Part shown: piece by piece, positions 1 to 25,588 of the stretch
How positions within the stretch are numbered: position 1 is the first letter of the stretch
How the letters are laid out: every line of letters begins with the position of its first letter
Source of the DNA: a virus
Taxonomy: Duplodnaviria > Heunggongvirae > Uroviricota > Caudoviricetes
Direction: 5' to 3' (one strand)
Length of the DNA: 28,909 bases
Virus record (IMG/VR): IMGVR_UViG_638341082_000005
Span: 1 to 28,909 of that record
The notes under the pieces: generated by a model
What the model was told of the DNA's origin: nothing
The model's input: only the letters and a program-made list of their open reading frames with translations
The model's database searches: none
Made by a program: the position numbers and the translations under genes

Positions 1-540
1 ATGAATCCGTTTAACGCCATTACTTTTGCTGCATTGTGCGGGCCTCTGGCTTGTCCTGCTGCTATGGCGCAGGAGTTCATCATCCAGCCAGCCCCTGTGA
101 TTGCTAAACCTTTTGAGTACTCTCCTTCTGTTGAGGAATTCTCACGCAAAATGGAAGAGGGTAAGGAGATCTTGCAAAAGTTAACAATTGCAGCAGATGA
201 CTACTATATCTGTTTGATTGATCTTAATAGCCAAGATGCTCGCGAGTTTGTTTCCAAAAACGGGACAGATACGACAGAGGCATGCGAAATGTTCCTGCGT
301 GCTTTTGAAGAAGAAGTGAAGCGTACAATTGAATCGCCTCTGCCTGAATTTATCAGGTCAGAACTGAAGGTTTACTGGCGTCATATTGCTAAAGCTCGCT
401 CATCTGTCACTCGCCTTAACAATTACATAAAGAGCATATTTAAAGAAACTGTTACTTTTAGCGGGCGCGCGGATCTTGCTGGAATTGCAGCACTAGCTAG
501 TCACACATCAAATAAGCTAAAATCGATGCAATTTCACTAA
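1..540 (+). CDS. hypothetical protein, possibly 5'-partial at the window edge; upstream partner of the YafO-like gene
   Basis: 179-aa ORF beginning at base 1 with a hydrophobic N-terminus (MNPFNAITFAALCGPLACPAAMA); no family recognised; stop lies 17 nt before the next ATG, suggesting an operon. Confidence 0.4.
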   Translation: MNPFNAITFAALCGPLACPAAMAQEFIIQPAPVIAKPFEYSPSVEEFSRKMEEGKEILQKLTIAADDYYICLIDLNSQDAREFVSKNGTDTTEACEMFLRAFEEEVKRTIESPLPEFIRSELKVYWRHIAKARSSVTRLNNYIKSIFKETVTFSGRADLAGIAALASHTSNKLKSMQFH

Positions 541-556
541 CCGATAGCGGACGACC

Positions 557-991
557 ATGCATCTAGAAGTCTCTATTAATCCAGAAACTAGAGCTGAATT
601 TTTTGATGAAGTTTTTCTCAAATTCCCGGAGCTAGAGTCTTCTATCATTGATGATTTCAAGAGATACAAAGCAACCGGTGAGCTTCCGCATTATTTCGGT
701 AGGGACGTTGCGTATACTCAGCCTTATGGTGCTTTTCGGGCTGGGTTGATGCATATCCATCTTTGTCTACCGCCAAACAAGTTTCCCGAGAAACTTCCAC
801 AACCGGATAGGGTCTGCAAGAAAGGTGATCCTGATAATGATGCTTGTCTTGTGTATGTCCAAGGTGAGCTTTATGAGAATAAATATTCACTCATTGCTAT
901 TATGTATCCCGATGCACATGAAAAAGCAAGAAAACATGATGTGATGAGCTATCTGGCGCGAATTGCCCAGAATTATAAAGATGAAAACTAA
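557..991 (+). CDS. YafO-family toxin-like protein (ribosome-dependent mRNA interferase family)
   Basis: 144-aa translation shares blocks with E. coli YafO as I recall it: YKxxGxLPxxFGRD, HIHL, LVYxQG, LIAIxxPxxHKxAR; from memory, not a search. Confidence 0.55.
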   Translation: MHLEVSINPETRAEFFDEVFLKFPELESSIIDDFKRYKATGELPHYFGRDVAYTQPYGAFRAGLMHIHLCLPPNKFPEKLPQPDRVCKKGDPDNDACLVYVQGELYENKYSLIAIMYPDAHEKARKHDVMSYLARIAQNYKDEN

Positions 992-1011
992 CCCGCCGAA
1001 GCGGGTTTTTT
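991..1011 (+). terminator. rho-independent terminator between convergent transcription units
   Basis: hairpin ACCCGC-CGAA-GCGGGT followed by TTTTTT; the reverse complement also gives a hairpin plus a short U-run for the minus-strand operon ending at 1018. Confidence 0.6.
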
Positions 1012-1017
1012 GTGAGA

Positions 1018-1290
1018 TTAGTTATTTATTTTCCTATTTGTTCTTACCCTCTCCCATTCAATTCTGCCTTCTTCACGCCGTTTATCTATATATTCAGCAA
1101 GATCCTGAATGTTGATGCAGCGCTTTGCTTTCTGTGATGTACCAACACGATAAGCCGGGATCGGCAACTGGCATGCATTTGCTTTCGCTTCTGCTGTGTT
1201 AGGGCTCATACCGAAATACTTTTGGCATACAGCTGACAGCTCAATGTTTGGGGTATTGAATTCAGCCATCAGTAAAAACAAGGTGTTCAT
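1018..1290 (-). CDS. PrtN-like (pyocin activator family) small DNA-binding protein
   Basis: MNTLFLLMAEF...YFGMSP...LPIPAYRV...IQDLAEYIDKRR matches the remembered PrtN-family pattern; start placed at internal ATG (MNTLF) preceded by GGAGA, rather than the ORF-track start at 1317. Confidence 0.55.
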   Translation of the reverse strand: MNTLFLLMAEFNTPNIELSAVCQKYFGMSPNTAEAKANACQLPIPAYRVGTSQKAKRCINIQDLAEYIDKRREEGRIEWERVRTNRKINN

Positions 1291-1326
1291 AATTTTCTCC
1301 ATCAAAACCGGCTGCACCCGGGAAAA

Positions 1327-1902
1327 TCATAATTCTGTGCTGGTGGCAGGAATTAATTTCTGCCAGATAGCGGAAACATATTTTGCCTGATGACGGGCAT
1401 CAGCCAGGGCGTTGTGCCGTTCGCCATCGAAAGGCATGTCCATTTTGGGGTCGAATCCGATGGAACGCCCAAGCGTAACGATCGTGCGTACATCGTGGTC
1501 ATTCCAGTATGCCCACGGGCAGATTTGTCCTGCTCGCTCATAAGCTCCACGTAAAATTACGTTGTCGAAGGTGGCTCCGTTACCCCAGACTTTTAAATAT
1601 TTCGTATTGTCTGCGTGCCGGTTAATGAAATGATTTAGTTCTGAGAGAGCATCGCTGATCGACAAAGTATCATCAATACAGATTGCAGCTCGTGCTTCAG
1701 GGCTTTGTTTCAACCACCACAGGATGGTATCGCCGTCAGGTGTAGCTCCTAGCTTCATAGCACTGTCCAGGCTAACAACCGTATAGAATTCTTGTCCGAT
1801 GTCTCCGGTTTCTGGAGTGAAGAACACCGCGCCAATGGAAACGATCGGTGCATCCTTATTTTTCCCCATCGTCTCAAGGTCGATCATTAAGTTGTTCATC
1901 AC
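1327..1902 (-). CDS. DnaQ-like (DEDDh) 3'-5' exonuclease
   Basis: Exo I motif IDLETMG near the N-terminus and H-x4-D motif (HNALADARH) near the C-terminus; 4-nt overlap with the upstream gene. Confidence 0.7.
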   Translation of the reverse strand: MMNNLMIDLETMGKNKDAPIVSIGAVFFTPETGDIGQEFYTVVSLDSAMKLGATPDGDTILWWLKQSPEARAAICIDDTLSISDALSELNHFINRHADNTKYLKVWGNGATFDNVILRGAYERAGQICPWAYWNDHDVRTIVTLGRSIGFDPKMDMPFDGERHNALADARHQAKYVSAIWQKLIPATSTEL

Positions 1903-2708
1903 TTCACCTCTTGTGATGGTTTTGCTGCAAAATACTCGATACCTTTATCCCAGATAGATTTTATGGTCGACCACGTGACTGGCACTTTAATTTCAATACG
2001 TCCGCTCCCGTCACAGGTATCGCAATCATCATCGCCAAAGCATTCCAGGCAGCTTATAAACGTAGTTTCTGAAAATTCACCGGATAGCGCCCCCTTAGCG
2101 CCGTTCTCGGCTGTTAGTCTCTTCGGCACCATAACCCAACCATCCGGAGTTACCGGAGAGTTGCCAGACAGTGCGTTCTGCAATCGTTCCAGCTTAACGT
2201 ATTCCTGAACCCTGTTTCCGTCGCACGCCTGAAGCCATTGCACAGCCTTTTGCGCATCAGTGTGAAAGGTACAAGTGCGACCGTCATCAAATTGCATTTC
2301 GTAGAGGTCAGCAACCTGTTTAAACTGCGTTTGTGGCAACTTGTAAGCCTGGCTTGCAGGTACGGCACCATAGAGCATGGCAGCTCGGCAGGCGTTCCAG
2401 CCTTCATCAAAACCGACTATGCCATTATTTAAAGATGGACGAGCATCTGGCACCACCGGCACTGGCTTGGCTATATATAGCGGCTGAACATACCAGCCCT
2501 TTGATAACCAACTGTCAGCAATGTTTTTACTCCTAGTTATTGCCGGAATACCTAAGCCATTGTCTGAATGCAGCCATGCCACCGGATCCTCTTCCAGCGA
2601 TGCCAGAGCAATTTCATAAGCACGGCGCTCAACATTGTCTCGCACGTCCATGCTGCTGATTCGTTCTTTGATTTCTTTAATCAGTTCTTTATCGGTAAAT
2701 GTGGTCAT
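1899..2708 (-). CDS. hypothetical prophage protein with C-terminal CxxC...CxxCxGxG zinc-ribbon-like motif
   Basis: 269-aa ORF; C-terminus CLECFGDDDCDTCDGSGRI; TAATG overlap with the upstream gene indicates translational coupling. Confidence 0.5.
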   Translation of the reverse strand: MTTFTDKELIKEIKERISSMDVRDNVERRAYEIALASLEEDPVAWLHSDNGLGIPAITRSKNIADSWLSKGWYVQPLYIAKPVPVVPDARPSLNNGIVGFDEGWNACRAAMLYGAVPASQAYKLPQTQFKQVADLYEMQFDDGRTCTFHTDAQKAVQWLQACDGNRVQEYVKLERLQNALSGNSPVTPDGWVMVPKRLTAENGAKGALSGEFSETTFISCLECFGDDDCDTCDGSGRIEIKVPVTWSTIKSIWDKGIEYFAAKPSQEVK

Positions 2709-3064
2709 TATGCTCCAGCCTCCGGTGCTTTTGGCATTACTGCCCAGTGAGTGATATTGACGTTTTCAAGGTCCCCGACCTGAAATGTCCACTGCCATTC
2801 TCCGGTTTCTTTTTGCCCCCATGTATACCAGAGAGAACGCCAGCCAATCAGCCAGCCTTCTCCATTAGCATCAAATAACAGAATACTTTCATTCGCTGGC
2901 GGCAGTTCAGCTGACACTGGTATTACTTTGTTTTCCAGTGCTGCACATTTAGCTTCAAGCGCATCAAATTTACGCACCAGGTACTCAGCATTTGTTTCAT
3001 TCACTTTCAGATCTCGTGGTACACATTTCCCGCGAAGAAACCCTTCCATTTCGAAAACATTCAT
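2708..3064 (-). CDS. DUF551-like phage protein
   Basis: Trp-rich C-terminal half ending THWAVMPKAP, typical of DUF551; start placed at second Met, giving an ATGA overlap with the HD gene stop. Confidence 0.5.
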   Translation of the reverse strand: MNVFEMEGFLRGKCVPRDLKVNETNAEYLVRKFDALEAKCAALENKVIPVSAELPPANESILLFDANGEGWLIGWRSLWYTWGQKETGEWQWTFQVGDLENVNITHWAVMPKAPEAGA

Positions 3065-3597
3065 GCGCATTTGCGTAACTCCGATAACTCGTTAAAACGT
3101 TCCATAAACATCCCATAGGCATGGCCTGGCGACAGTGGAATAACTTTGAACATCTCTGTTGCCGGGATACCTTCCAGTACAGGCCAGAAAGAGCCATCAT
3201 CAAGCCCGAGATCGCGGCGTTCGGTTGCCAGCATGATGAGATCGGCATATTTCACGGGCGTGCTCATAACCGGGGGTAACCCGTATTTCTCACGGATTAC
3301 GGCGTCTATTTTTTCTTCCATCCGTTTATAGTCAGGAAGAAGGCGTTTCAGTGGCGCGGGGATGTCCTGGCAATACGCTTCTGTTGCATCATGCATTAAT
3401 GCTTCAAAAGCAAATTCCTGCGGTACCAGCTGGCTGCAAAGCACCGCATGTTGGGCGACGCTGTAGAAATGTGAAAGATGTCCTGCAAAGCGACAGATAT
3501 TTGAAAGAGAAACCGCGATATCGTTAATAACGATGTCGTCTTTATTTATCCTGTCATAATAAAAATGCTTCCCGGAAAAAGTTTTAATAAATGACAT
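3061..3597 (-). CDS. HD-domain phosphohydrolase (YfdR-like 5'-deoxynucleotidase)
   Basis: HD motif in LMHDATEAY plus upstream His (AQHAVL); start at ATG (MSFIKTF) with GGAGA 7 nt upstream; the ORF-track start at 3624 is a GTG without an RBS. Confidence 0.7.
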   Translation of the reverse strand: MSFIKTFSGKHFYYDRINKDDIVINDIAVSLSNICRFAGHLSHFYSVAQHAVLCSQLVPQEFAFEALMHDATEAYCQDIPAPLKRLLPDYKRMEEKIDAVIREKYGLPPVMSTPVKYADLIMLATERRDLGLDDGSFWPVLEGIPATEMFKVIPLSPGHAYGMFMERFNELSELRKCA

Positions 3598-3690
3598 TTT
3601 GTTCTCCACGTATATGCGCTGCACCGCGCTGAATTCTGGTAAAAGGAAGCCCTCACCATCCGGCGATTATTGAGTTAATTACGTTTCCAT

Positions 3691-3712
3691 AAATGCCCCC
3701 GCAGGGGCATTT
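3691..3712 (-). other. intercistronic perfect stem-loop, no U-tract
   Basis: AAATGCCCC-CGCA-GGGGCATTT, 9-bp stem, between the YfdQ-like stop and the HD gene start; probably an mRNA processing or stability element rather than a terminator. Confidence 0.4.
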
Positions 3713-3724
3713 GCAGTAATGAAA

Positions 3725-4549
3725 TCAGGCGGTGAAAGTACCAATAAAGGTTTCTACTTTGCTGTCTTTGAATTTCTCAACAAGCAGATCACGAAATTCG
3801 TTAGCCATTTCTTCCTGCACTGCTTCCAGCTGAATAATGCGCAGAACCAGTACAGGACGATCGCCAGTGATAATGCTGAGGCGTAATTTAAATGGACGTT
3901 CTTTCAGACCTTCAAACGGAACGCATTTAAATTCAAATGCCACTGGCATAATATCTTTGGTCTTCGCTTCGACAGACTCCATCAGGGAGCGTTTGCCGCT
4001 GAAGTCATTATCTTCAAAATCAGCGGTCTGGTTTGCTTCAATCGTGATTTTACGGACAGCCGCAGCCGCTTTTGTTGCCTGAATAGCGTCACCATTAGCA
4101 TCAAAGCCCACAAGGTAGTCGGCCCAGTCTTCAATCCATTCTGCCAGTGACTTCTGGGAGTTACGCTCGCCATTAACAGACAACAGAGCAGAGAACGGTG
4201 CTGTCTTTTTCAGTTTGAGAGTGGCGGTGTTATCTGCGTGACCTGGTTCATCAATAGTACCCAGGTTAATCACACTGACGGCTCGCATATTATCGGCATC
4301 GATAAAGCAGCGGGTGCCTTCATCTGCAAGATCTTTAGAATAACGGGTAAAGTCATCGATGCTGGCAGTGGAAAGCGCACCACGGAAACGGAAGCGATTT
4401 AAATTAAATTTCTCCAGATCATGAATGCGGAAATTCTCAGGCAATGCCACAGCATCGGCACCAATCTTACTGATAATTTCATTAACACCCTGAGCAGAAA
4501 TAAGGGCATGGATTTGATTAATTGCGGTTGCGTCTAAGTTCTGAGACAT
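3725..4549 (-). CDS. YfdQ-family (DUF2303) prophage protein
   Basis: 274-aa translation resembles YfdQ of prophage CPS-53; same relative position (YfdP-Q-R-S) as in that element. Confidence 0.65.
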
Positions 4550-4614
4550 AATAAGTCCTCACTATATAAAGATATTCAGTGATGAGATAAATAATCGGTT
4601 AATTAAGAACGATA

Positions 4615-4977
4615 TTAATGACCTGCTGCGCGGAGTTTTCCGTCAGGTTCACCGGCAAGAGTCAGTAATTGTCCCTGGTCTTCCTGCAGAATAGTCAGGC
4701 GACCACCGCGATTGACATACATCGGCGTTTCGGTGGTGTCTTCTTCGGAAATTTTCCCGCGGTTAGTCGGGCGAACATATGAGAGTTTGTGTTTGATTTT
4801 CACACGGTTCTCATCAAATGGTTCGATTTCCAGGTTGAGCGAGACCTTACCTTTGGTTTTCGTGTTCATCACACCGGAAGCGACTTCACTGAGAACAGCG
4901 CCGATTTTGGTTTCAAATACGCCGCCGTCCAGCTCCCCGATAAATGCCTGCACATCAGTACTGCGTTCGCTAGCCAT
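4615..4977 (-). CDS. hypothetical protein (YfdP-position), first gene of the early-left operon
   Basis: start placed at ATG 4977 (MASERSTDVQ...) with GAGGAG 7 nt upstream; the longer ORF-track start at 5208 runs into a structured region with no RBS. Confidence 0.5.
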   Translation of the reverse strand: MASERSTDVQAFIGELDGGVFETKIGAVLSEVASGVMNTKTKGKVSLNLEIEPFDENRVKIKHKLSYVRPTNRGKISEEDTTETPMYVNRGGRLTILQEDQGQLLTLAGEPDGKLRAAGH

Positions 4978-5027
4978 TTTGCTGCTCCTCATCATATCGA
5001 CCCTGCAAGGTCGGTTGGTTTCTCCAC

Positions 5028-5112
5028 AAAACAGAGAAGAACACCTGCGGTGACTGCCGCCCGGATGGATTGGGTTATGAGCCCGTCGTCCGGTGATGCT
5101 CTTCTCTGTTTT
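5028..5112 (-). promoter_or_regulatory. long hairpin in the 5' UTR of the first early-left gene
   Basis: AAAACAGAGAAGAACA (5028-5043) pairs with TGCTCTTCTCTGTTTT (5097-5112), one mismatch, about 53-nt loop; lies between the tL-like terminator and the RBS at 4985-4990. Confidence 0.4.
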
Positions 5113-5160
5113 GTAAAAAGAGCGGTACCAGCCGGAAGCAAGTGTACAAACTGGTACCGC
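5113..5160 (-). terminator. intrinsic terminator inside the early-left leader (tL-like)
   Basis: 10-bp GC-rich inverted repeat GCGGTACCAG / CTGGTACCGC followed on the minus strand by UCUUUUUACAAAA. Confidence 0.5.
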
Positions 5161-5260
5161 CAAAGCAGTGGCTGTTGTGGTGGGGTTGTCACTCAGGCGT
5201 ATGGTCAACCTGACAATCCGGTGTCCTCAACGGGGAAAGAGTAACCCCGCCATACTTACC

Positions 5261-5299
5261 GCCGCGCCATTTCGCGGATTACCACAACGCTGAGAGCAC
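5261..5299 (-). promoter_or_regulatory. candidate nut-like element (boxA-like + boxB-like hairpin)
   Basis: minus strand reads GTGCTCTCAGCG (boxA-like, cf. lambda CGCTCTTA), then about 11 nt, then hairpin CCGCG-AAATGG-CGCGG; no N-like ORF seen, so speculative. Confidence 0.25.
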
Positions 5300-5571
5300 T
5301 TAGCCAGTTACGGCACCACACTTTGTCGCGGTTCCATAAATGCCCTCATCGTTGCACCCTGGTCTCTTCCCAGGCGTCAAACCGGATCGCCACGCTGGTT
5401 AGGCGTCTTATCAGCATCCTCATTGACTTGCACATTCCGGCTACCTGGTTTGTTTGCCCGAGCAAGGAGTGGATTGTCCCCTTTAACGTCCCCAGACCGC
5501 TAACGACGCATGTGCCATACGCCGTGTTACAACCAAATTTTGTTAGTACCTTGTTTGTAGGTCTGGAGAGA

Positions 5572-5600
5572 AAGATAAAATGAAGTTGCGCATTATGCAA
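5572..5600 (-). promoter_or_regulatory. candidate pL promoter overlapping an operator-like palindrome
   Basis: minus strand TTGCAT (-35), 17 nt, TATCTT (-10); overlaps TTGCGCATTATGCAA (5586-5600); a second palindrome TTGCGAGATAAGCAA at 5609-5623. Confidence 0.4.
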
Positions 5601-5637
5601 GTGTTTTATTGCGAGATAAGCAATTTGGTGGGTAATG

Positions 5638-5657
5638 AAAAGCCACCTTCTGGTGGC
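5638..5657 (-). terminator. terminator downstream of the repressor gene
   Basis: GCCACC-TTCT-GGTGGC hairpin followed by a short U-run on the minus strand, 23 nt past the repressor stop. Confidence 0.45.
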
Positions 5658-5679
5658 TAATTGATGTTGAGGTAGGGGG

Positions 5680-6372
5680 TTAATTGTGTCGCTTAAGGGT
5701 CTGTGACTGACTGATTAAGACCTTTCCAAAGACCATAAACCGGTGTTCGTTTTCGCTGGTAATTCCCCATTCGCGGTAAATCTGATTATCAGAAATTACC
5801 AGCAGTTTATCAGGTATCATTTGCAGTCGTTTGACGTAAATTTTATCATCAAAACCAAATACATATATACCATCCCCATCAAACTGATTGATACTGATAT
5901 CAACGAAGATGAGATCTCCTGGCTCAATGGTTGGACACATACTGTCCCCACGAACGTTGATAACTTTAATGTGATTTGCTGGTCGTCCACCAAACATCGA
6001 TACAGCATTATCAGTTCTGTATTCAATGGCATGAATCACATCAATGACATCACCGCCCTGGATAAGGCCATTTCCCGCACTGGCACTGACATCCAGCATT
6101 TCAATACGGAATACATCCTTCACCTGCGCAACATCCTCACTAATACTGTTTTTACATACAGTATTACTTTTGAGGTCTGAGGTAAAGAGATCAGCAATAT
6201 CAACACCTAAGCTCCTGGCAATATTACTCAGGGCTTGTTCAGTGAATTGTTTCTGCTTACCTGTTTCGAGGCGCGAGATATTCGCCGCATCCACTCCTAT
6301 TGCTTCAGCGAGATCGGCGATTTTCATGTTCTTCGCCTGGCGAAGTTGTCTGACTCGATTTCCTATGTTCAT
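5680..6372 (-). CDS. CI-type prophage repressor (HTH + S24 LexA-like peptidase)
   Basis: N-terminal HTH (MKIADLAEAIGVDAANISRLETGKQ), Ala-Gly cleavage site (SASAGNG), Ser nucleophile in GDSMCPT and Lys in KRLQ; divergent from the Cro-like gene. Confidence 0.85.
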   Translation of the reverse strand: MNIGNRVRQLRQAKNMKIADLAEAIGVDAANISRLETGKQKQFTEQALSNIARSLGVDIADLFTSDLKSNTVCKNSISEDVAQVKDVFRIEMLDVSASAGNGLIQGGDVIDVIHAIEYRTDNAVSMFGGRPANHIKVINVRGDSMCPTIEPGDLIFVDISINQFDGDGIYVFGFDDKIYVKRLQMIPDKLLVISDNQIYREWGITSENEHRFMVFGKVLISQSQTLKRHN

Positions 6373-6469
6373 GCGTTTATTACATTTCTTTATTGCGCGT
6401 TAAGCAAATCAACTTGCGCAAAATATTTGCGTGAAATAATATGCTCATCACGCAATATGTGGAGGTTAT
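6373..6469. promoter_or_regulatory. oR/pR-pRM-like divergent control region
   Basis: operator-like palindrome TTGCGCGTTAAGCAA (6393-6407) of the same form as the two at 5586-5623; candidate pR TTGCGC (6414-6419), 17 nt, TAATAT (6437-6442); inverted repeat TTGCGTGA...TCACGCAA (6427-6455); GGAGG RBS before the Cro-like ATG. Confidence 0.5.
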
Positions 6470-6730
6470 ATGCAATCACCATTACGGAATGTGCGTAAGG
6501 CGCACGGATTTACTTTGCAGCATGTTGCTGCGGGCGTTCAGGTCAATCCAGCGACGCTGAGTCGTATTGAAAGACTGGAACAAATTCCATCTATCGATCT
6601 TGCAGAACGTCTGGCCAATTTTTTTAAGGGTGAAATCAGCGAAATGCAGATTCTTTATCCGGCACGTTTTCAATCTAGCCAAAACCAGAATGGGTTTAAA
6701 CCACAGGAACAGGAGGTAAGCCGTGGGTAA
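6470..6730 (+). CDS. Cro-like HTH (XRE-family) regulator
   Basis: 86-aa protein with HTH (FTLQHVAAGVQVNPATLSRIER), divergent from the repressor, GGAGG RBS. Confidence 0.7.
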   Translation: MQSPLRNVRKAHGFTLQHVAAGVQVNPATLSRIERLEQIPSIDLAERLANFFKGEISEMQILYPARFQSSQNQNGFKPQEQEVSRG

Positions 6731-7274
6731 GCATCATTGGAAAGTGGAAAAACAACCTGAGTGGTACGTGAAAGCTGTCAGAAAAACTATCGCGGCATTG
6801 CCTGGGGGTTACGCTGAAGCTGCTGACTGGCTGGATGTAACAGAGAACGCTTTATTCAACCGCCTTCGTGCAGATGGCGATCAGATTTTCCCGCTGGGAT
6901 GGGCAATGGTTTTACAGCGCGCGGCTGGCACTCACTACATTGCGGATGCTGTCGCACAGTCTGCTGGTGGGGTGTTCGTATCGCTTCCTGAAATTGAGGA
7001 AGTAGAGAACGCCGATATAAACCAGCGCCTGCTGGAAGTCATCGAACAGATCGGGAATTACTCAAAGCAGATTCGTTCGGCAATCGAAGATGGGGTCGTG
7101 GAGCCACACGAGCAGACAGCAATTAATGATGAGTTGTATCTGTCAATTTCGAAGCTCCAGGAGCATGCAGCACTGGTCTACAAAATCTTCTGCGCTCCAG
7201 AAAAGAGTGACGCCCGCGAGTGTGCAGCTCCGGGCGTCGTGGCGTTTTGTGTCTGTGGAGAAACTAACGCATGA
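6723..7274 (+). CDS. CII-like regulator (CP76-type), putative
   Basis: GTG start after AGGAGG; position immediately after Cro; resembles CP76-type CII proteins from memory. Confidence 0.45.
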   Translation: MGKHHWKVEKQPEWYVKAVRKTIAALPGGYAEAADWLDVTENALFNRLRADGDQIFPLGWAMVLQRAAGTHYIADAVAQSAGGVFVSLPEIEEVENADINQRLLEVIEQIGNYSKQIRSAIEDGVVEPHEQTAINDELYLSISKLQEHAALVYKIFCAPEKSDARECAAPGVVAFCVCGETNA

Positions 7275-7875
7275 ACAGTTTAACGGCAAATAACCGTTTG
7301 TCGCAACAGCTGGTGGTCAGTGTCGCTGAACACCTGTTGTTACGGTATGAATGCAGATTACCAAATCACCTGGCTGTAAGTAACCACAGAGAACTTTACC
7401 TGACTGTGGGGGGCGAGTTGTGCAGGAACTTAACCGCTGGTTTCGTGACGGAAGAGGGCTTTATGTCCATGTTATTCGTTGGGAGCCAGAAACACAGCGC
7501 GTTATCTATCTTCGCAAAGACTACCCGCATGAGTGCTTTAGTCCTTTGTGGAAATTCAGGCATGATTTTGTTGAGTGTGAAGGACCACCAGCACATTGAT
7601 TCTGCCATTCCGGGACGTTACACTGTTCAGGCACCTTATAAAGCGGGTGCCGGGCGTGGAAACCCGGAATTCACCAAAGCGCACAACCGCGCTCTTGCGG
7701 TTTTTTTGTGTAATGAGCAGCATTACGCCCAAATTATGGTGGGGCGTGCAGGGCCAACTTCGGTTGGGCCGGGTTCTTTGGTGACCGGTATTTCCACCCC
7801 TGTACGTCTCACCACCAATAAGGTCGTGGAAAGCCTTGGTGGTGAGTTATTAAAAATCACCAAAGAGGCTGCCAT
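7271..7875 (+). other. ambiguous segment: frame is open but no recognisable protein; contains terminator-like and tetraloop hairpins
   Basis: frame 2 is open from ATG 7271 into the Rha gene; an alternative 59-codon frame (GTG 7420 to TGA 7599) looks more protein-like; AACCGC-GCTCTT-GCGGTT + TTTTTTT at 7685-7709; UUCG-loop hairpin near 7751-7770; 11-bp inverted repeat CTCACCACCAA/TTGGTGGTGAG at 7808-7846. Confidence 0.3.
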
Positions 7876-8422
7876 CATGGCTACGATCCCAACCCTCACT
7901 CAACCTGAAATTGCCATCGTTGATGGTCAGGCTGTTACTTCATCCCTGGCTGTTGCCAACTTCTTCTCCAAACGTCATGACGATGTACTGAAAAAGATCC
8001 GCACGCTTGAATGCTCTGCATCATTCACTGCCCGCAATTTTTCGGTGAGTGATTACACCGATTGCACAGGCCGCAAACTACCTTGCTATCAAATAACCCG
8101 CGACGGCTTTGCGTTTCTTGCTATGGGGTTCACGGGTAAACGTGCTGCCCAGTTCAAAGAGGCATACATCAATGCCTTTAACCAGATGGAGAAACAGCTT
8201 TCAAATCCCTCTGTACTGAGCGACGTTGCACATAACGCCAGCGTTCTCTATTCCTACATTTCATCAATTCATCAGGTCTGGCTGCAGCAGCTTTATCCTA
8301 TGTTGGCAAAAGCCGAATCTCCGCTGGCTGTTAGCTTGTATGACTATATTAATGATGCTTCGGCACTGGCCTGCCTCATAAATTTGTCGCTGAACCCTTC
8401 AGAGGTAAGGGGGCGCAAATGA
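7876..8422 (+). CDS. Rha-family phage regulatory protein (N-terminus may extend to 7271)
   Basis: Rha domain begins at MATIPTLTQPEIAIVDGQAVTSSLAVANFFSKRHDDVLKKIR; AGAGG RBS upstream of ATG 7876; Rha domains normally sit at the extreme N-terminus. Confidence 0.55.
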
Positions 8423-8643
8423 TCCGGAATATTTTCAAACGGTTTACCAATCAGACTTTCCGTTGTCCTCGTCCTGGTCAGTGGTACACCACGCCTGCAG
8501 GGCATGTTCTACGTGTCAGCCTGGTTGACCGTGAATGTCAGAAGGTGATTTGTGAACCGCTGGGCCGTAATTACCGCATCAGTATGCCGCTTATAGCCTT
8601 TTGCTCCGGAAAAAACATGAAGCATCTCGGAGGTGCAGCATGA
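8419..8643 (+). CDS. small hypothetical protein
   Basis: 74-aa ORF with ATGA overlaps at both ends (Rha stop and replication-gene start); no family recognised. Confidence 0.35.
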   Translation: MIRNIFKRFTNQTFRCPRPGQWYTTPAGHVLRVSLVDRECQKVICEPLGRNYRISMPLIAFCSGKNMKHLGGAA

Positions 8644-9458
8644 GTATGGAGCTGATGGTTAAAGCGATGAAAATTCGAGTGGGTAATCCATTGCGAAAAC
8701 TGGTTCTGATCAAGCTGGCTGATAACGCCAGCGATCAGGGTGAGTGCTGGCCCAGCTACCAGCATATTGCTGACCAGTGCGAGATTAGCAAACGTTCTGT
8801 GATGAATCATATTGCGGCTCTTTGTGATTCCGGACTGGTAAAAAAAGTCACCCGGAAAGGTGAAAAAGGTAACTCAAGTAATATCTATCTCCTTCATCTT
8901 GATGGTGCAGGAGATTCACTAGGGGGTAGTGCAAATAATTCACTATCTGGTGCAGCAAATTCACCAGGTAGTGCAGGAGTTGCACCAGGGGGTGGTGCAG
9001 GAGATTCACCCAGAACCAGTCACTCTTTTGAACCAGTCAAAGAACCAGTCAATGAACCAATAGCTGTTGGTGCATCTGCTGATGAGTCTGTGCGAGTTCG
9101 TTCAAACCGACCGGAATACTCTCCGGAGTTTGAGCAGGCATGGCTGGCATACCCCAAACGTGCTGGTGGCAATTCAAAATCTGCAGCCTTCAAAGCCTGG
9201 AAAGCCCGTTTGAATGAGGGGGTAAACCCCGAAACCATGCTGGAAGGTGTGAAACGCTATGCGGGCTGGGTATCTGCGATGGGTAACAGCGGCACACAAT
9301 TTGTGAAACAGGCTGTCACGTTCTTTGGTCCGGATCGTCATTTCGAAGAATCCTGGGAAGTTCCTGCGGTATCTGCAGCCAGACGTGAGGATCCGTACTT
9401 CAAAGCCAGTTACGACAACGTGGACTACAGCCAGATCCCGGCAGGATTCAGGGGGTGA
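8640..9458 (+). CDS. putative replication initiation protein (N-terminal HTH, iteron-encoding linker)
   Basis: N-terminal winged-HTH-like segment (LRKLVLIKLADNASDQGECWPSYQHIADQCEISKRSVMNHI); Gly/Ser/Ala-rich linker encoded by tandem DNA repeats, as in lambda O; start at ATG 8640 after GGAGG. Confidence 0.5.
   Translation: MSMELMVKAMKIRVGNPLRKLVLIKLADNASDQGECWPSYQHIADQCEISKRSVMNHIAALCDSGLVKKVTRKGEKGNSSNIYLLHLDGAGDSLGGSANNSLSGAANSPGSAGVAPGGGAGDSPRTSHSFEPVKEPVNEPIAVGASADESVRVRSNRPEYSPEFEQAWLAYPKRAGGNSKSAAFKAWKARLNEGVNPETMLEGVKRYAGWVSAMGNSGTQFVKQAVTFFGPDRHFEESWEVPAVSAARREDPYFKASYDNVDYSQIPAGFRG
8905..9060. repeat. iteron-like direct repeats (candidate replication origin) inside the replication gene
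   Basis: five copies of a 15-bp motif GTGCAG(G/C)A(G/A)(A/T)T(T/G)CAC starting 8905, 8929, 8950, 8971, 8995 at 21-24 bp spacing, then 2.5 copies of GAACCAGTCAA(A/T) at 9020-9058. Confidence 0.55.
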
Positions 9459-9460
9459 TC

Positions 9461-9949
9461 ATGAGTCTTTTGAATGAAGTTCAGAAATTCATTGAAGCCC
9501 ATCCGGGGTGTACTTCCGGAGACATTGCGGATGCTTTTGCAGGTTACTCACGGCAGCGCGTTCTGCAGTCAGCAAGCAAGTTACGTCAGAGTGGGCGTGT
9601 GGCTCACCGTTGTGAAGGAGATACACGCAGACATTTCCCGCGCCTGACTGAGAGAGCGCAGGAGCCGGAACCACAACCAGTTCGTGAAACCAGACCTGTG
9701 CGCAATTTCTATGTCGGCACTAACGATCCCCGGGTGATTTTGTGCCTGACCCGCCAGGCTGAAGAACTGGAGTCAAGGGGCTTATACCGTCGTGCTGCAA
9801 CCGTGTGGATGGCGGCATTCCGTGAAAGCCACTCCCAGCCAGAACGAAACAATTTTCTGACGCGTCGTGAGCGGTGCTTACGGAAAAGCAGCAAGCGCGC
9901 TGCATCGGGTGAAGAGTGGTATCTGTCAGGGAATTACGTGGGGGCTTAA
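9461..9949 (+). CDS. PerC-like transcriptional regulator, putative
   Basis: C-terminal segment LTRQAEELESRGLYRRAATVWMAAFRESHSQPERNNFLTRRERCL resembles the PerC family; start at ATG 9461 after GGGGGTGA. Confidence 0.4.
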   Translation: MSLLNEVQKFIEAHPGCTSGDIADAFAGYSRQRVLQSASKLRQSGRVAHRCEGDTRRHFPRLTERAQEPEPQPVRETRPVRNFYVGTNDPRVILCLTRQAEELESRGLYRRAATVWMAAFRESHSQPERNNFLTRRERCLRKSSKRAASGEEWYLSGNYVGA

Positions 9950-10602
9950 TGAGTAATAAATATTGCCAGGCGCTGGTGGAACTGCGGAACAAACCAGCCC
10001 ATGAACTGAAGGAAGTGGGCGATCAGTGGCGCACGCCGGACAACATTTTCTGGGGAATTAACACCCTGTTTGGCCCGTTTGTTCTGGATCTGTTCACTGA
10101 CGGTGATAACGCCAAATGTGCTGCGTATTACACGGCGGAAGACAACGCGCTGGCGCATGACTGGTCAGAACGTCTTGCGGAGCTTAAAGGGGCTGCCTTT
10201 GGTAATCCCCCATACAGCCGCGCCAGTCAGCATGAGGGGCAATACATCACCGGCATGCGTTACATCATGAAACATGCCAGTGCCATGCGTGATAAGGGTG
10301 GGCGCTATGTTTTCCTGATCAAAGCTGCCACCAGCGAAGTGTGGTGGCCGGAAGATGCAGACCATATTGCTTTTATTCGCGGGCGTATTGGTTTTGAACT
10401 GCCTGCCTGGTTTATCCCGAAGGATGAGAAGCAGGTGCCGACAGGCGCTTTCTTCGCTGGTGCTATTGCTGTTTTCGACAAGACCTGGAAGGGACCGGCA
10501 ATCAGCTACATCGGGCGCGATGAACTTGAGGCATGTGGTGAGGCGTTTTTGGCGCAGGTTCGCCAGCAGGCAGAAAAACTTGTCAGGGAGATGGCGGCAT
10601 GA
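9949..10602 (+). CDS. phage-type DNA N6-adenine methyltransferase (orphan, no cognate nuclease seen)
   Basis: catalytic NPPY motif (GNPPYS) and overall resemblance to the phage Dam family; start ATG overlaps the upstream stop (TAATG). Confidence 0.75.
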   Translation: MSNKYCQALVELRNKPAHELKEVGDQWRTPDNIFWGINTLFGPFVLDLFTDGDNAKCAAYYTAEDNALAHDWSERLAELKGAAFGNPPYSRASQHEGQYITGMRYIMKHASAMRDKGGRYVFLIKAATSEVWWPEDADHIAFIRGRIGFELPAWFIPKDEKQVPTGAFFAGAIAVFDKTWKGPAISYIGRDELEACGEAFLAQVRQQAEKLVREMAA

Positions 10603-10925
10603 CGACGTTAACTCAATGCCAGCAGCAGGTGCTGGATATGCTGATTTCTTACCAGCAAGAGCGTGGCTTTCCGCCAACCAATCAGGAGGTGGCAACCATG
10701 CTGGGATACCGTTCAGTGAATGCAGCGGTGGAGCATCTTCGCGCACTGGAGAAAAAAGGCGTCATCACGATAAAGCGTGGCGTGGCCCGGGGGATAACGC
10801 TTCATACCGCAGTGAAGGACGACGACAGCGAAGCGGTCGGTATCATCCGCGCACTGCTTGCCGGTGAGGAGAACGCCAGGCTGCGTGCAGCCCACTGGTT
10901 ACATGAGAGGGGCCTGAAAGTATGA
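10599..10925 (+). CDS. LexA-DNA-binding-domain-like winged-helix protein
   Basis: 108 aa; MTTLTQCQQQVLDMLISYQQERGFPPTNQEVATMLGYRSVNAAVEHLRALEKKGVI resembles the LexA N-terminal domain with no peptidase domain; ATGA overlap with dam. Confidence 0.5.
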   Translation: MTTLTQCQQQVLDMLISYQQERGFPPTNQEVATMLGYRSVNAAVEHLRALEKKGVITIKRGVARGITLHTAVKDDDSEAVGIIRALLAGEENARLRAAHWLHERGLKV

Positions 10926-11311
10926 AGTTGATCCTGCCTTTCCCGCCCAGTGTGAACACGTACTGGCGACACCCCAACAAAGGGGCATTTGCTGGTAAGA
11001 GCCTGATAAGCGAGGCGGGGCGAAAATTTCAGAGCGCGGCGTGCGCAGCAATAGTTGAGCAGTTACGTCGTCTGCCGAAACCAACGTCGGCACCTGCTTC
11101 AGTGGAGATCGTGTTGTTTCCTCCGGATAACCGGATCCGCGATCTGGACAACTATAACAAGGCGCTGTTTGACGCCCTGACCCACGCGGGTGTGTGGGAA
11201 GACGACAGACAGGTGAAAAGAATGCTGGTGGAGTGGGGACCGGTTATCCCGAAAGGGAAGGTCGAGATCACTATCAGTAAGTATGAGAAACCGGCGGGTG
11301 CAGCCGCCTGA
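10922..11311 (+). CDS. rusA: RusA-family Holliday junction resolvase
   Basis: LPFPPSVNTYW and DNRIRDLDNYNKALFDALTHAGVWEDDRQV match the RusA signature including the catalytic Asp cluster. Confidence 0.85.
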   Translation: MKLILPFPPSVNTYWRHPNKGAFAGKSLISEAGRKFQSAACAAIVEQLRRLPKPTSAPASVEIVLFPPDNRIRDLDNYNKALFDALTHAGVWEDDRQVKRMLVEWGPVIPKGKVEITISKYEKPAGAAA

Positions 11312-11330
11312 TTAAGAGGAGAAACGAAGT

Positions 11331-12395
11331 ATGAATAATCTGATGGTCATTGATGGTATTGAAGTTCGTCGTGATGCTTATGGGCGTTACAGCCTGAACG
11401 ATCTGCATCGCGCAGCAGTAGCATCTGGTGCAAATGCCAGAACCAAGGAGCCAGGAAAGTTTCTTTCCAGCCAACAAACTGTTGAGCTTGTTCATGAATT
11501 GACCAACACCCAGAATTTGGGTGTTGACCCGGTGAGTGTGATTCATGGGGGAAATGAACGGGGAACGTATGTCTGCAAGGAACTGGTGTATGCCTATGCA
11601 ATGTGGATCAGCCCGTCATTCCATCTGAAGGTGATCCGTACTTTCGACATGGTAACCAGCGCACCGGAAAAATTATCCGGACAGGCTGCTGACAAGATGC
11701 AGGCTGGTGTGATTCTGCTGGACTTTATGCGCCGGGAATTAAACCTGTCTAACTCTTCAGTGCTTGGTGCCTGTCAGAAACTCCAGGAGGCTGTTGGCTT
11801 ACCGAATCTGGCACCGCGCTATGCCATTGATGCTCCTGCTGACGCGCCTGATGGCTCAAGTCGTCCTACGCTGTCGCTGAGTGCACTGCTGAAACAGTAT
11901 GGTAACCGCGTTGCTTCATCCGCGATATCGCAGTCGGCGTCACAGGTTGCCCGTGAGACAAAGGTACGCCGGAAACTGGTAAAGGAAAGGGCCAGGCTGA
12001 AAAGGGCCACGGTCAAAAATCCGCAGGCCAGAATCAAAGTTAACCGGGGGGATTTGCCCGTAATCAAGCTGGGTAATGCGCGGGTTGTCCTGTCCCGCCG
12101 CAGGCGTCGTAAAAAAGGGCAGCGTTCATCCCTGAAAGGTGGCGGCAGCGTGCTTGTGGTGGGTAACCGTCGTATTCCCGGCGCGTTTATTCAGCAACTG
12201 AAAAATGGCCGGTGGCATGTCATGCAGCGTGTGGCCGGGAAAAACCGTTACCCCATTGATGTGGTGAAAATCCCGATGGCGGTGCCGCTGACCACGGCGT
12301 TTAAACAGAATATTGAGCGGATACGGCGTGAGCGTCTTCCGAAAGAGCTGGGCTATGCGCTGCAGCATCAACTGAGAATGGTAATAAAGCGATGA
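11331..12395 (+). CDS. chimeric ORF: KilA-N domain fused in frame to the C-terminal ~160 aa of lambda head completion protein Z
   Basis: N-terminus has the KilA-N domain (MVIDGIEVRRDAYGRYSLNDLHRAA...YAMWISPSFHLKVIRTFD); from about residue 195 (NRVASSAISQSASQVARETKVRR... to ...LRMVIKR) it matches lambda gpZ and is followed by U and V. Confidence 0.7.
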   Translation: MNNLMVIDGIEVRRDAYGRYSLNDLHRAAVASGANARTKEPGKFLSSQQTVELVHELTNTQNLGVDPVSVIHGGNERGTYVCKELVYAYAMWISPSFHLKVIRTFDMVTSAPEKLSGQAADKMQAGVILLDFMRRELNLSNSSVLGACQKLQEAVGLPNLAPRYAIDAPADAPDGSSRPTLSLSALLKQYGNRVASSAISQSASQVARETKVRRKLVKERARLKRATVKNPQARIKVNRGDLPVIKLGNARVVLSRRRRRKKGQRSSLKGGGSVLVVGNRRIPGAFIQQLKNGRWHVMQRVAGKNRYPIDVVKIPMAVPLTTAFKQNIERIRRERLPKELGYALQHQLRMVIKR

Positions 12396-12787
12396 AACAT
12401 ACTGAACTCCGTGCAGCCGTACTGGATGCACTGGAGAAGCATGACACCGGGGCGACGCTTTTTGATGGTCGCCCCGCTGTTTTTGATGAGGAAGATTTTC
12501 CGGCAATTGCCGTTTATCTCACCGGCGCTGAATACACGGGCGAAGAGCTGGACAGCGATACCTGGCAGGCGGAGCTGCATATTGAAGTTTTCCTGCCTGC
12601 TCAGGTGCCGGATTCAGAGCTGGATTCGTGGATGGAGTCCCGGATTTATCCGGTGATGAGCGATATCCCGGCACTGTCAGATTTGATCACCAGTATGGTG
12701 GCCAGTGGCTATGACTACCGGCGCGACGATGATGCGGGCCTGTGGAGTTCAGCCGATCTGACTTATGTCATTACCTATGAAATGTGA
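12392..12787 (+). CDS. U: tail terminator protein U
   Basis: 131-aa translation essentially identical to lambda gpU as remembered. Confidence 0.9.
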
Positions 12788-12794
12788 GGACGCT

Positions 12795-13535
12795 ATGCCT
12801 GTACCAAATCCAACAATGCCGGTGAAAGGTGCCGGGACCACACTGTGGGTTTATAAGGGGAACGGTGACCCTTATGCGAACCCGCTTTCAGACGTTGACT
12901 GGTCGCGTCTGGCAAAAGTTAAAGACCTGACGCCCGGCGAACTGACCGCTGAGTCCTATGACGACAGCTATCTCGATGATGAAGATGCGGACTGGACTGC
13001 GACCGGGCAGGGGCAGAAATCTGCCGGAGATACCAGCTTCACGCTGGCGTGGATGCCCGGAGAGCAGGGGCAGCAGGCGCTGCTGGCGTGGTTTAATGAA
13101 GGTGATACCCGTGCCTATAAAATCCGCTTTCCTAACGGCACGGTCGATGTGTTCCGTGGCTGGGTCAGCAGTATCGGTAAAGCGGTGACGGCGAAGGAAG
13201 TGATCACCCGCACGGTGAAGGTCACCAATGTGGGACGCCCGTCGATGGCTGAAGATCGCAGTACGGTGACGGCGGCAACCGGCATGACGGTAACGCCAGC
13301 CAGTGCGTCCGTAGTGAAAGGACAGAGCACCACGCTGACCGTGGCATTCCAGCCGGAAGGCGTAACCGACAAGAGCTTCCGTGCGGTGTCTTCGGATAAA
13401 ACAAAAGCCACCGTGTCGGTCAGTGGTATGACCATCACCGTGAACGGCGTTGCTGCAGGCAAGGTCAACATTCCGGTCGTATCCGGTAATGGTGAGTTTG
13501 CTGCGGTTGCAGAAATCACCGTCACCGCCAGTTAA
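12795..13535 (+). CDS. V: major tail tube protein V
   Basis: [22 protein letters not shown]... matches lambda gpV including the C-terminal Ig-like domain; start at ATG 12795 after GAGGA. Confidence 0.9.
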
Positions 13536-19336: not shown

Positions 19337-21531
19337 ATGGGTAAAGGCAGCAGTAAGGGGCATACCCCGCGCGAAGCGAAGGACAACCTGAAGTCCACGC
19401 AGATGCTGAGCGTGATAGACGCCATCAGTGAAGGGCCGATTGAAGGTCCGGTGGACGGATTAAAAAGTGTGCTGCTGAACAGTACGCCAGTGCTGGACAG
19501 TGAGGGGAATACCAATATCTCCGGTGTCACGGTGGTTTTCCGGGCAGGTGAGCAGGAGCAGACACCGCCGGAGGGATTTGAATCCTCCGGCTCCGAGACG
19601 GTGCTGGGTACGGAAGTGAAGTACGACACGCCGATTATCCGGTCAGCGTGGAGGTCCAGTCCGTCACCGACGGCGTGAAGGTGAAAGTGAGCCGGGTTCC
19701 TGACGGCGTTGCAGAATACAGCGTGTGGGGGCTGAAGCTGCCGACGCTGCGCCAGCGCCTGTTCCGCTGCGTGAGTATCCGTGAGAACGATGACGGTACG
19801 TATGCCATCACCGCCGTGCAGCATGTGCCGGAGAAAGAAGCCATCGTGGATAACGGGGCGCACTTTGACGGCGACCAGAGCGGCACGGTGAATGGTGTCA
19901 CGCCGCCAGCGGTGCAGCACCTGATCGCCGAAGTCACCGCAGACAGCGGGGAATACCAGGTGCTGGCGCGCTGGGACACGCCGAAGGTGGTGAAGGGCGT
20001 GAGCTTCCTGCTCCGTCTGACCGTGGCAGCGGACGACGGCAGTGAGCGGCTGGTCAGCACGGCCAGGACGACGGAAACCACATACCGCTTCAGGCAACTG
20101 GCGCTGGGGCGTTACACGCTGACAGTCCGGGCAGTAAATGCGTGGGGGCAGCAGGGCGATCCGGCGTCGGTATCGTTCCGGATTGCCGCACCGTCAGCGC
20201 CGTCGCGGATTGAGCTAACTCCGGGCTATTTTCAGATCACCGCCACGCCGCATCTTGCCGTTTATGACCCGACGGTACAGTTTGAGTTCTGGTTCTCGGA
20301 AAAGCGGATTGCGGATATCAGGCAGGTTGAAACCACAGCCCGCTATCTTGGCACGGCGCTGTACTGGATAGCAGCCAGTATCAATATCAAGCCGGGCCAT
20401 GATTATTATTTTTACATCCGCAGTGTGAACACCGTTGGCAAATCGGCATTCGTGGAGGCTGTTGGCCAGCCGAGTGATGATGCATCCGGCTATCTGGATT
20501 TTTTCAAAGGAGAGATAGGGAAAACCCATCTGGCTCAGGAGTTGTGGACGCAGATTGATAACGGTCAGCTTGCGCCTGACCTGGCGGAAATCAGAACGTC
20601 CATCACGGATGTCAGTAATGAAATCACGCAGACCGTCAATAAGAAACTGGAAGACCAGAGTGCAGCGATCCAGCAGATACAGAAGGTTCAGGTTGATACA
20701 AATAATAACCTGAACAGCATGTGGGCTGTGAAGCTGCAGCAGATGCAGGACGGACGCCTTTATATCGCGGGTATCGGTGCCGGTATTGAGAACACCCCCG
20801 ACGGTATGCAGAGTCAGGTGCTGCTGGCGGCAGACAGGATTGCGATGATTAATCCTGCGAATGGCAACACAAAGCCGATGTTTGTTGGTCAGGGCGATCA
20901 GATATTCATGAACGAAGTGTTCCTGAAATACCTGACGGCTCCCACCATTACCAGCGGCGGTAATCCTCCGGCATTTTCCCTGACACCGGACGGGCGGCTG
21001 ACGGCGAAAAATGCAGATATCAGCGGTAACGTGAATGCGAACTCCGGGACGCTCAACAATGTCACGATTAATCAGAACTGCCGGATTCTGGGAAAACTGT
21101 CAGCCAACCAGATTGAAGGCGATATTGTTAAAACGGTGGGCAAAGCTTTCCCCCGGGACTCCCGTGCACCGGAACGGTGGCCATCAGGGACCATTACCGT
21201 CAGGGTTTATGACGATCAGCCGTTTGACCGGCAAATTGTTATTCCAGCGGTGGCTTTCAGCGGTGCCAGACATGAACGGGAGAATAGCGATACTTATTCG
21301 TCATGCCGCCTGATAGTGAAGAAAAACGGGGCTGAAATTTATAACCGAACGGCTCTGGATAATACTCTGATTTACACGGGTGTTATTGATATGCCTGCAG
21401 GCAGTGGCGTAATGACACTGGAGTTTTCGGTATCAGCATGGTGGGTAAATGGCTGGTATCCCACAGCAAGTATCAGCGATTTGCTGGTTGTGGTGATGAA
21501 GAAAGCCACCGCAGGCATCAGTATCAGCTGA
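19337..21531 (+). pseudogene. J: tail tip / host specificity protein J with ~1.5 kb internal deletion and frame change
   Basis: first ~100 codons match the lambda J N-terminus (MGKGSSKGHTPREAKDNLKST...VKYDTPI); this frame stops at 19678; a second frame from 19648 ([20 protein letters not shown]...) matches lambda J from about residue 600; junction near 19636-19640. Confidence 0.75.
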
Positions 21532-25585: not shown

Positions 25586-25588
25586 AGG

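Follow-up and report, generated by a model that had tools for sequence, protein, structure and literature searches.

Within the 28,909-nucleotide (nt) stretch of viral DNA analysed here (the window; record IMGVR_UViG_638341082_000005), a lambda-like prophage of the dusA-targeting type carries an open reading frame (ORF) at 11331–12395 that joins the start of a KilA-N gene to the end of tail gene Z. This ORF is confirmed to be a deletion scar, a KilA-N::Z chimera, and not a native gene. It is best explained, with a probability of roughly 0.85, by a single illegitimate deletion of about 14.8 kb that left a dead remnant and used a recurrent TA endpoint where strands would repeatedly be broken or exchanged. 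The KilA-N endpoint is not random, as the same TA occurs in at least 17 independent rearrangements running in both directions, a recurrence missed by the preliminary description of this DNA. Features lie on the plus strand unless stated otherwise.

The chimeric ORF encodes 354 residues and starts 19 nt past the RusA Holliday-junction resolvase gene (10922–11311; PF05866, E = 1e-14; phrog_34), which is the last intact early-right gene before the scar. Its 5' part (11331–11902, codons 1–191 up to the GG of GGT) holds the KilA-N domain and linker region, while its 3' part (11905–12395) encodes lambda gpZ residues 30–192 and the stop codon. Between them lies the crossover dinucleotide TA (11903–11904), common to the KilA-N parent (GGTATCCGCC) and the Z parent (CATTAACCGCG), and the first Z-derived codon, AAC (11904–11906), borrows its A from this shared TA. 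The stop codon overlaps the U start codon as it does in lambda. Pfam places the KilA-N domain (PF04383) at residues 7–109 (E = 3.9e-22; 78.6 bits against a cutoff of 23.8) and Minor_tail_Z (PF06763) at residues 192–354 (E = 5.6e-68; 229 bits), the latter matching profile positions 28–190 of 190. As the match begins at position 28, Z was cut within its domain. PHROGs assigns residues 1–210 to phrog_129 (transcriptional regulator) and residues 192–354 to phrog_27 (tail completion). By BLASTP, residues 1–191 are identical to residues 1–191 of the intact 269-residue KilA-N protein of E. coli B1W1, and residues 192–354 match lambda gpZ 30–192 at 163 of 163 positions. Neither parent is complete: the full KilA-N architecture of N-domain, linker and C-terminal domain has lost residues 192–269 to replacement, and the 192-residue gpZ has its residues 1–29 (profile positions 1–27) replaced by 191 foreign residues. 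A search of the PDB for gpZ returned no match and no solved structure. Downstream, the tail terminator gene U (12392–12787; PF06141 positions 1–130 of 130, E = 8e-62) and the major tail protein gene V (12795–13535; PF16461 plus Big_2; phrog_41) are intact. The preliminary description had read a single ORF after RusA as some 190 residues of KilA-N and 160 of the Z C-terminus, followed by U and V, with an in-frame junction at about 11880–11910; Pfam and BLASTP bear out this arrangement, and the TA falls inside that range. Its naming of Z as a head completion protein does not hold, since Pfam and PHROGs both identify lambda Z as a tail (tail-completion) protein.

At the DNA level the KilA-N parent agrees with the window through ...CAGTATGGTA (window 11904) and the Z parent from TAACCGCGTT (window 11903). 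The sequence is ...CAGTATGGTATCCGCCTGAC in the intact KilA-N gene, ...GCCATTAACCGCGTTGC in the intact Z gene and ...CAGTATGGTAACCGCGTTGC in the window, and it is this comparison across the junction that fixes the crossover at TA 11903–11904. The alignment that had been proposed as a check therefore locates both the breakpoint and its microhomology, which is exact over 2 bp (TA), with agreement at six of seven positions in TA(T/A)CCGC and the Z base present in the window at the mismatch. Independent BLAST breakpoints have the KilA-N-side matches ending at 11909/11912 and the Z-side matches beginning at 11903. Few shared bases, a lack of long homology and parents that are otherwise unrelated are what characterises a microhomology-mediated illegitimate deletion, and all three are found here.

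The junction is not covered in any of 5426 complete E. coli genomes and is absent from 50,697 phage records and from the GTDB species representatives. Among about 15 billion proteins the exact chimera occurs on one contig only, from E. coli 101-1 (EDX39882.1), where the junction is internal to a contig of 209,772 bp. Because both halves are 100% identical to their parents the event is very recent, and judged by these comparisons the junction is strain-specific. The database name of EDX39882.1, 'minor tail protein Z', is wrong, the protein being the KilA-N::Z fusion. In PHROGs, phrog_8274 matches the chimera from end to end, which indicates that the ORF is already present in a prophage catalogue.

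What was lost can be read from the intact inducible relative PhiR29_1, in which KilA-N lies at 9930–10739, Z at 25232–25810 and the interval from crossover to crossover is 14,816 bp. Encoded in this interval are the C-terminus of KilA-N, YdfU/DUF968, Q, a porin moron, S, R, Rz, Bor, Nu1, A, W, B, C/Nu3, D, E, FI, FII and codons 1–29 of Z. No Q, holin/endolysin/spanin, terminase, portal, protease/scaffold, capsid or head-tail connector gene was found in the window, which thereby falls short of a complete inducible lambdoid gene set, all of which is present between KilA-N and Z in PhiR29_1; the earlier proposal that the scar lacks everything between the nin region and Z, with Q, lysis, terminase and head genes gone, is upheld. 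In the mechanism we favour, one non-homologous deletion of about 14.8 kb joined codon 191/192 of KilA-N, an early gene of the Bro network, to Z codon 29/30 by a crossover at the shared TA, the flanks being no more than imperfectly alike (TA(T/A)CCGC). Lost with it were the C-terminal domain of KilA-N, the nuclease gene DUF968/YdfU, Q, the late promoter region and the lysis cassette, together with terminase, portal, protease/scaffold, D, E, FI, FII and Z codons 1–29. Its phase left an in-frame KilA-N::Z ORF in the early-right operon, ahead of the genes U, V, G, T, H, M, L, K and I, and a second, microhomology-mediated deletion of 1.28 kb has frameshifted J.

The flanks of the element leave no room for the missing genes elsewhere. 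Window positions 1–11909 run collinear with the attL-proximal arm of a B1W1 dusA prophage, to which they are 98.2% identical, and directly to the left of that arm in B1W1 lie a dusA' remnant and the host genes zur, yjbJ and dinF; attL itself lies just left of the window. At the right end the tail genes are followed by DinI, the tyrosine integrase and dusA. With attL and host genes on one side (in the B1W1 homologue) and dusA on the other there is no space for late genes outside the window, and the arrangement that would have made the ORF a native gene, with late genes to its left, is not what is found. In B1W1 itself (L001 21734–23723), which has the same dusA prophage type, KilA-N, DUF968, Q and the lysis genes are intact and the terminase, portal, head and tail genes up to H survive only as fragments. 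The comparison with another strain suggested in the preliminary description thus yields a collinear arm with a different deletion, which points to independent decay. The late regions of B1W1 and PhiR29_1 belong to different lineages.

Integration at dusA, as previously proposed, is well supported. The integrase gene (26310–27407, minus strand; PF00589; syntenic with B1W1) adjoins dusA (27496–28533; PF01207), whose 5' end comes from the prophage (attR) by comparison of attL with attR, and the dusA' remnant lies to the left of the homologous position in B1W1. The same comparison gives an att identity block of about ATGCTCGA, near 27586–27593. The prophage carries a diverged copy of the dusA 5' end (the first ~100 nt; window 27496–27600, L001 2694–2800), and since it supplies this end itself, dusA remains intact after integration.

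The KilA-N side of the scar proved to be one instance of a recurrent event. Protein searches returned many other KilA-N fusions, most of them breaking after ...SALLKQYG, and the DNA of these fusions in every case reads ...CAGTATGGTA and then enters another gene. Seventeen independent rearrangements were collected at the same TA, 15 of which keep the 5' part of the gene. Besides Z in the window, the partners and the bases that follow GG are a tail sheath gene (L003; TACCCGC), the antiterminator Q (L004/L005; TACTGGA), a baseplate J gene (L006; TACCCGC), a gp44-like hub (L007; TATTGGC), J (L008; TAACGGA), a tail-completion gene (L009; TAACCGC), a tail fibre gene (L132/L133; TATGGGG), a capsid gene (L134; TAACTAT), Stf (L139, from a gut metagenome; TAACAGC), TerL (L149; TAACGAT) and a fibre C-terminus (L152, in the complete genome NZ_CP150990.1, whose prophage adjoins prfC and not dusA; TAGAGTA). 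DUF968 is the partner in L148, with a GGTATC microhomology, and two cases are known from protein only, namely Q at a second position (P0145) and a lysozyme (P0206). A search with the KilA-N C-terminal part gave the two rearrangements that keep the 3' part from TA(T)CCGCC: a fusion to DUF4222 at ...GGGTTAT^CCGCC (L130; the caret marks the joint) and an internal deletion at ...GCTTAT^CCGCC (L131). TA is common to 16 of the 17 events, which makes for an exact and reproducible crossover at a shared central dinucleotide. The same searches found about 16 other fusions spread over roughly 15 other positions of the 810-nt KilA-N gene, and about half of the recorded disruptions of this gene therefore begin at one dinucleotide. 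Hot-spot events are rare per lineage, yet dominant among disruptions of the KilA-N gene.

In a scan anchored on the left flank of the site, all 120 loci found in IMG/VR have the gene intact. The left flank followed by a base other than T gave nothing in IMG/VR and only chance matches among GTDB representatives, and in metagenomes yielded one true case among 10 chance matches. In a protein clustering at 90% identity the 354-residue chimera is filed under a partial KilA-N representative of 110 residues. Searches that are based on representatives will largely miss such fusions, and the hot-spot count is accordingly a lower bound. Literature searches found no description of a hot spot of this kind.

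The joints share a common anatomy. TA stands at the crossover in 11 of 12 native partner sequences and GGTA on the left in six of 12, and N-CCGC on the right (TA-N-CCGC) is seen in 4 of 10 partners compared with 1.1% of background TA sites (P about 3e-6), so that the choice of partner is not random. The likeness is confined to about 5 nt around TA with no conserved outer half-site. All microhomologies include TA and extend from it either to the left (GGTA, GGTAT, GGTATC) or to the right (TAT, TATC). The +1 base of the product is that of the partner in all eight informative cases, which places the exchange at or to the left of the A. Taken together, these features suggest that some process repeatedly breaks or exchanges strands at the KilA-N TA, and that the partner is picked by a shared TA and a few matching bases beside it, GG to the left and/or N-CCGC to the right. 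An abundance of partners does not make the site hot, as the 9-mers that span TA have 23–67 near-matches in the late genes, where the mean is 52 and the maximum 124. No significant DNA hairpin was detected at the site (fold z-scores –0.5 to –1.0), and no second copy of the site within three mismatches was found in the phage. Fourteen of 16 events are in frame and 52% of TA sites lie in codon phase 3-1; as the excess is due in part to this phase and to ascertainment, no claim is made from it.

Several candidate explanations for the site were set aside. It is not a natural module boundary, as intact alleles stay at least 95% identical to its right with no mosaic boundary. The dusA integrase, whose att identity block is about ATGCTCGA, and the Din-family invertase of myovirus-type relatives, whose site is TTCTCGAAAACC-TT-GGTTTGGGAGAA, both act on sequences unlike the hot spot. 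XerCD with dif/cer, RusA (which cuts 5' of CC) and the RuvC consensus were compared by eye, and each mismatched either the crossover position or the origin of the +1 base. The central GRYC rule for gyrase cleavage fits the site only partly.

A number of points weigh against this account. The window junction comes from a single draft assembly without independent read support, and the TA site could be linked to no enzyme, DNA structure or repeat. L132 perhaps crossed over 1 nt further to the right, its native partner reading GTATCTGGGG. Complete genomes are nearly always intact at the site (1996 of 1998 records with a 120-nt probe), and the weakest probe match among them stops exactly at TA. The hot-spot cases come mostly from protein searches, in which clustering hides short out-of-frame products, so that the in-frame share (14 of 16) and the hot-spot share are biased estimates.

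As to what acts at the TA, a fixed nick or double-strand break made there by a nuclease or topoisomerase, followed by microhomology joining or a template switch, is a possible but tentative explanation. The candidates are DUF968/YdfU, expressed on induction, or a host type IA topoisomerase, and survivors would be enriched for deletions that remove Q and the lysis genes. In its favour, one exact endpoint serves both directions with TA in both retained ends, as expected of a 2-nt staggered cut, the microhomologies always span TA, and the +1 base is consistently the partner's. In these phages the gene for DUF968 follows KilA-N at a distance of 7 nt and carries an HNH motif, the family combining an Orf-like single-stranded DNA-binding domain with a His-Me (HNH) nuclease (PMC4118853, PMC5714182). 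In vivo, E. coli topoisomerase I cleaves within TA and requires a C at –4 (PMC9352719). Several partner sites do carry C-N-N-T^A on one strand (here the caret marks the cut; top strand, 5 of 11 partners; bottom strand, 6 of 13). The KilA-N site, however, lacks the –4 C for a T^A cut whichever strand is taken, and can be fitted only as CGGA^TA, with the cut 5' of TA on the bottom strand. DUF968 is also not known to act site-specifically, a free end is normally eroded by RecBCD, and simple joining of a ...GGTA-3' end does not predict the N-CCGC likeness on the right flank. A stronger form of this idea is that the TA in the KilA-N linker (GGT^ATC CGC, codons 191–193) is a built-in, enzyme-targeted site of breakage or exchange that repeatedly grounds this widespread family of E. 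coli prophages through deletions beginning at a single phosphodiester bond, with in-frame KilA-N fusions as a by-product, the agent being the DUF968 nuclease in abortive induction or a host topoisomerase; this we consider rather doubtful.

Less likely is that the hot spot serves as a primary or quasi-site for a conservative recombinase acting on pseudo-sites in the prophage, either a serine enzyme with a 2-bp TA crossover or a tyrosine enzyme with a TATCCGC overlap. The crossover dinucleotide is indeed exact and present in nearly all partners, the partner sites are alike on both sides, and left-kept and right-kept deletion products are both found. Against this, the likeness spans only about 5 nt and the partners lack a conserved outer half-site, the hot spot is related neither to the dusA att core nor to the Din-invertase site, the integrase is the one recombinase encoded in the window, and no useful dif/cer match was seen by eye. 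Neither an identifiable recombinase nor shared half-sites, the signs of conservative recombination, were thus in evidence.

It is very improbable that the recurrence reflects chance microhomology opportunity, or selection against a toxic C-terminal domain of KilA, without any special process of mutation. The gene is disrupted at many other positions too, and the codon phase of TA sites partly accounts for the in-frame bias. Selection cannot, however, fix one phosphodiester bond, the number of potential partners is average, and about half of the breakpoints recorded in an 810-nt gene lie on one dinucleotide. That the KilA-N::Z ORF is a native, selected fusion gene is hardly credible: the ORF is in frame, full length and matched throughout by phrog_8274, and KilA-N/Bro proteins are known for domain shuffling (PMC10111431), but it is found on a single contig, in none of the complete genomes, with halves identical to their parents, all essential late genes lost and Z cut inside its Pfam domain. 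An assembly artefact of the draft genome is just as remote, for although the join is supported by a single draft assembly with an overlap of just 2 bp, assemblers do not merge contigs on so short a match, the junction lies well inside a long contig, and same-nucleotide junctions are present in complete genomes and in assemblies made independently by other laboratories.

The fusion protein is probably a by-product that has not acquired a function. No plus-strand terminator-like site was found between RusA and V beyond the expectation from shuffled sequence, and the tail genes now presumably lie at the far end of the early-right operon. U, V, G, T, H, M, L, K, I, Lom and fibre genes are retained, and the tail genes that remain share 99–100% identity with lambda genes and with genes of phages such as YDC107_1 and PhiR49_1. 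The tail tip gene J (19337–21531) is a pseudogene with a second, independent internal deletion that is out of frame, and is split into ORFs at 19337–19678 (113 residues) and 19648–21531 (627 residues). Compared with the J of B1W1, 1280 nt are absent, which is not a multiple of three, and blastn joins L001 26817 to 28097. The junction lies in a 6-bp microhomology, ATCCGG, at 19637–19642, and the Ig, tip and C-terminal domains are found in the second ORF only. The parental sequences of this deletion, ..TTATCCGGAC.. and ..CAATCCGGTCAG.., are similar to ATCCGC at the KilA-N hot spot.

The preliminary description had held that an intact tail module is retained and is able to recombine with phages. 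Intactness does not stand, J being frameshifted and Z lacking residues 1–29. Given their 99–100% identity, it is plausible that the remaining tail genes recombine with active phages. Since J is broken, Z truncated and the lysis genes absent, production of tail-like particles from the remnant is unlikely, and the complete tail set and lysis cassette of a tailocin of the F-type pyocin kind are not found. The element is a dead remnant that keeps immunity, replication genes, an integrase and most tail genes but lacks the genes for lysis, packaging and heads as well as a functional tail tip.

The retained early genes encode a CI-like repressor, a Cro-like protein, Rha/Ash, an initiator with iterons, PerC, Dam, a protein with a LexA DNA-binding domain and RusA. 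The CI-like repressor (5680–6372, minus strand; PF00717 plus helix-turn-helix families), with helix-turn-helix and S24 peptidase domains, is intact, and the immunity region is still in place. A 24/39-nt repeat (GTGCAGGAGATTCAC...) in three to four copies at about 8905–9010 (L001 11905–12009) lies within the HTH_36/DnaD_N initiator gene, and the copies are probably origin iterons. The ORF at 10599–10925 encodes a 108-residue protein with only the LexA DNA-binding domain (PF01726) and no S24 peptidase domain. The gene is conserved upstream of RusA in all relatives, and its product could be an uncleavable LexA mimic that modulates SOS. At the attL-proximal end are a YafO-family toxin gene (557–991; PF13957), for which no antitoxin was identified, and a homologue of the pyocin activator PrtN (1018–1317, minus strand).

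Further observations were made among the fusion loci. The KilA-N C-terminus follows unrelated N-terminal partners in two proteins, RusA in P0305 and a TPR-like protein in P0307, and in both the joint is ..^NIKKFW, codon ~221 (caret at the joint), which may be a second, minor recurrent endpoint. RusA codons 70–76 (11123–11150, ..GATAACCGGATCCGCGAT..) contain GGATCCGC, near to the hot-spot sequence GGTATCCGC, and the unrelated fusion proteins P0144 and P0305 break RusA within a few codons of GGATCCGC; the likeness may be a shared motif or coincidence. Defence-type morons adjoin the scar region in relatives, namely GmrSD (L134 4001–6766) and a KAP NTPase (L148 5344–6675). The KilA-N::capsid fusion of L134 continues into a Pin-like invertase fragment, which indicates further rearrangement there.

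The scar is routine by itself and documents to the nucleotide how a young prophage died. The recurrent break is of wider interest. A KilA-N region of this kind is found in about 2000 of the 5426 complete E. coli genomes. If a defined activity makes the break, inactivation of prophages in this family would be partly sequence-programmed and not random, with a bearing on the origin of cryptic prophages and of chimeric Bro-type regulators, and a built-in site, if real, would provide a molecular driver for both prophage domestication and Bro/KilA-N domain shuffling.

The closest parallels are the cryptic lambdoid prophages of E. coli K-12, DLP12, Rac, Qin, e14 and CPS-53/KpLE1. As in these, internal deletions have taken out the genes for lysis and morphogenesis and spared immunity, integrase and some scattered structural genes, and the early genes here are homologous to yfdN–yfdT of CPS-53 and ydfU of Qin. 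Unlike them, the present remnant is very young and strain-specific, with a clean in-frame fusion whose parents can be identified to the nucleotide. With F-type pyocins and other tailocins the element shares a lambda-type tail gene cluster without head genes under an SOS-responsive repressor, and the PrtN-like gene at 1018–1317. Tailocins, however, have a complete tail set and a lysis cassette, whereas here lysis is deleted, J frameshifted and the Z N-terminus replaced.

For the fixed endpoint, Parkinson and Davis reportedly described Int-promoted deletion mutants of phage lambda in 1971, and Iida and Hiestand-Nauer are said to have described quasi-site recombination by Cin at cix of phage P1 in 1987. 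In both, as here, one endpoint is exact and shared and the other ends show limited likeness with an identical crossover dinucleotide, but the KilA-N endpoint has no recombinase or canonical site and a likeness of only about 5 nt. Illegitimate recombination anchored at the rolling-circle origin nick sites of M13 and pC194 was reportedly found by Michel and Ehrlich in 1986, and recombination mediated by topoisomerase or gyrase is said to have been described by Ikeda and by Shuman. These systems resemble the hot spot in having a fixed endpoint, there an enzyme cleavage site, with short partner likeness and very short microhomology, and differ from it in that no HUH Rep or relaxase is present here and the topoisomerase I and gyrase motifs fit only partly.

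Iyer, Koonin and Aravind reportedly described the Bro/KilA-N proteins as a network of domain swapping in 2002. The hot-spot fusions are like that network (PMC10111431) in pairing an N-terminal KilA-N module with varied C-termini, the break falling in the linker past the domain and its helical extension. They are unlike it in that the C-terminal partners are deletion-made fragments of structural, lysis and regulatory genes and not recurring functional domains, and in that intact alleles show no mosaic boundary at the site. The scar in this window is a new, strain-specific case of the well-known decay of prophages by illegitimate deletion, and is neither a tailocin nor a functional fusion gene.

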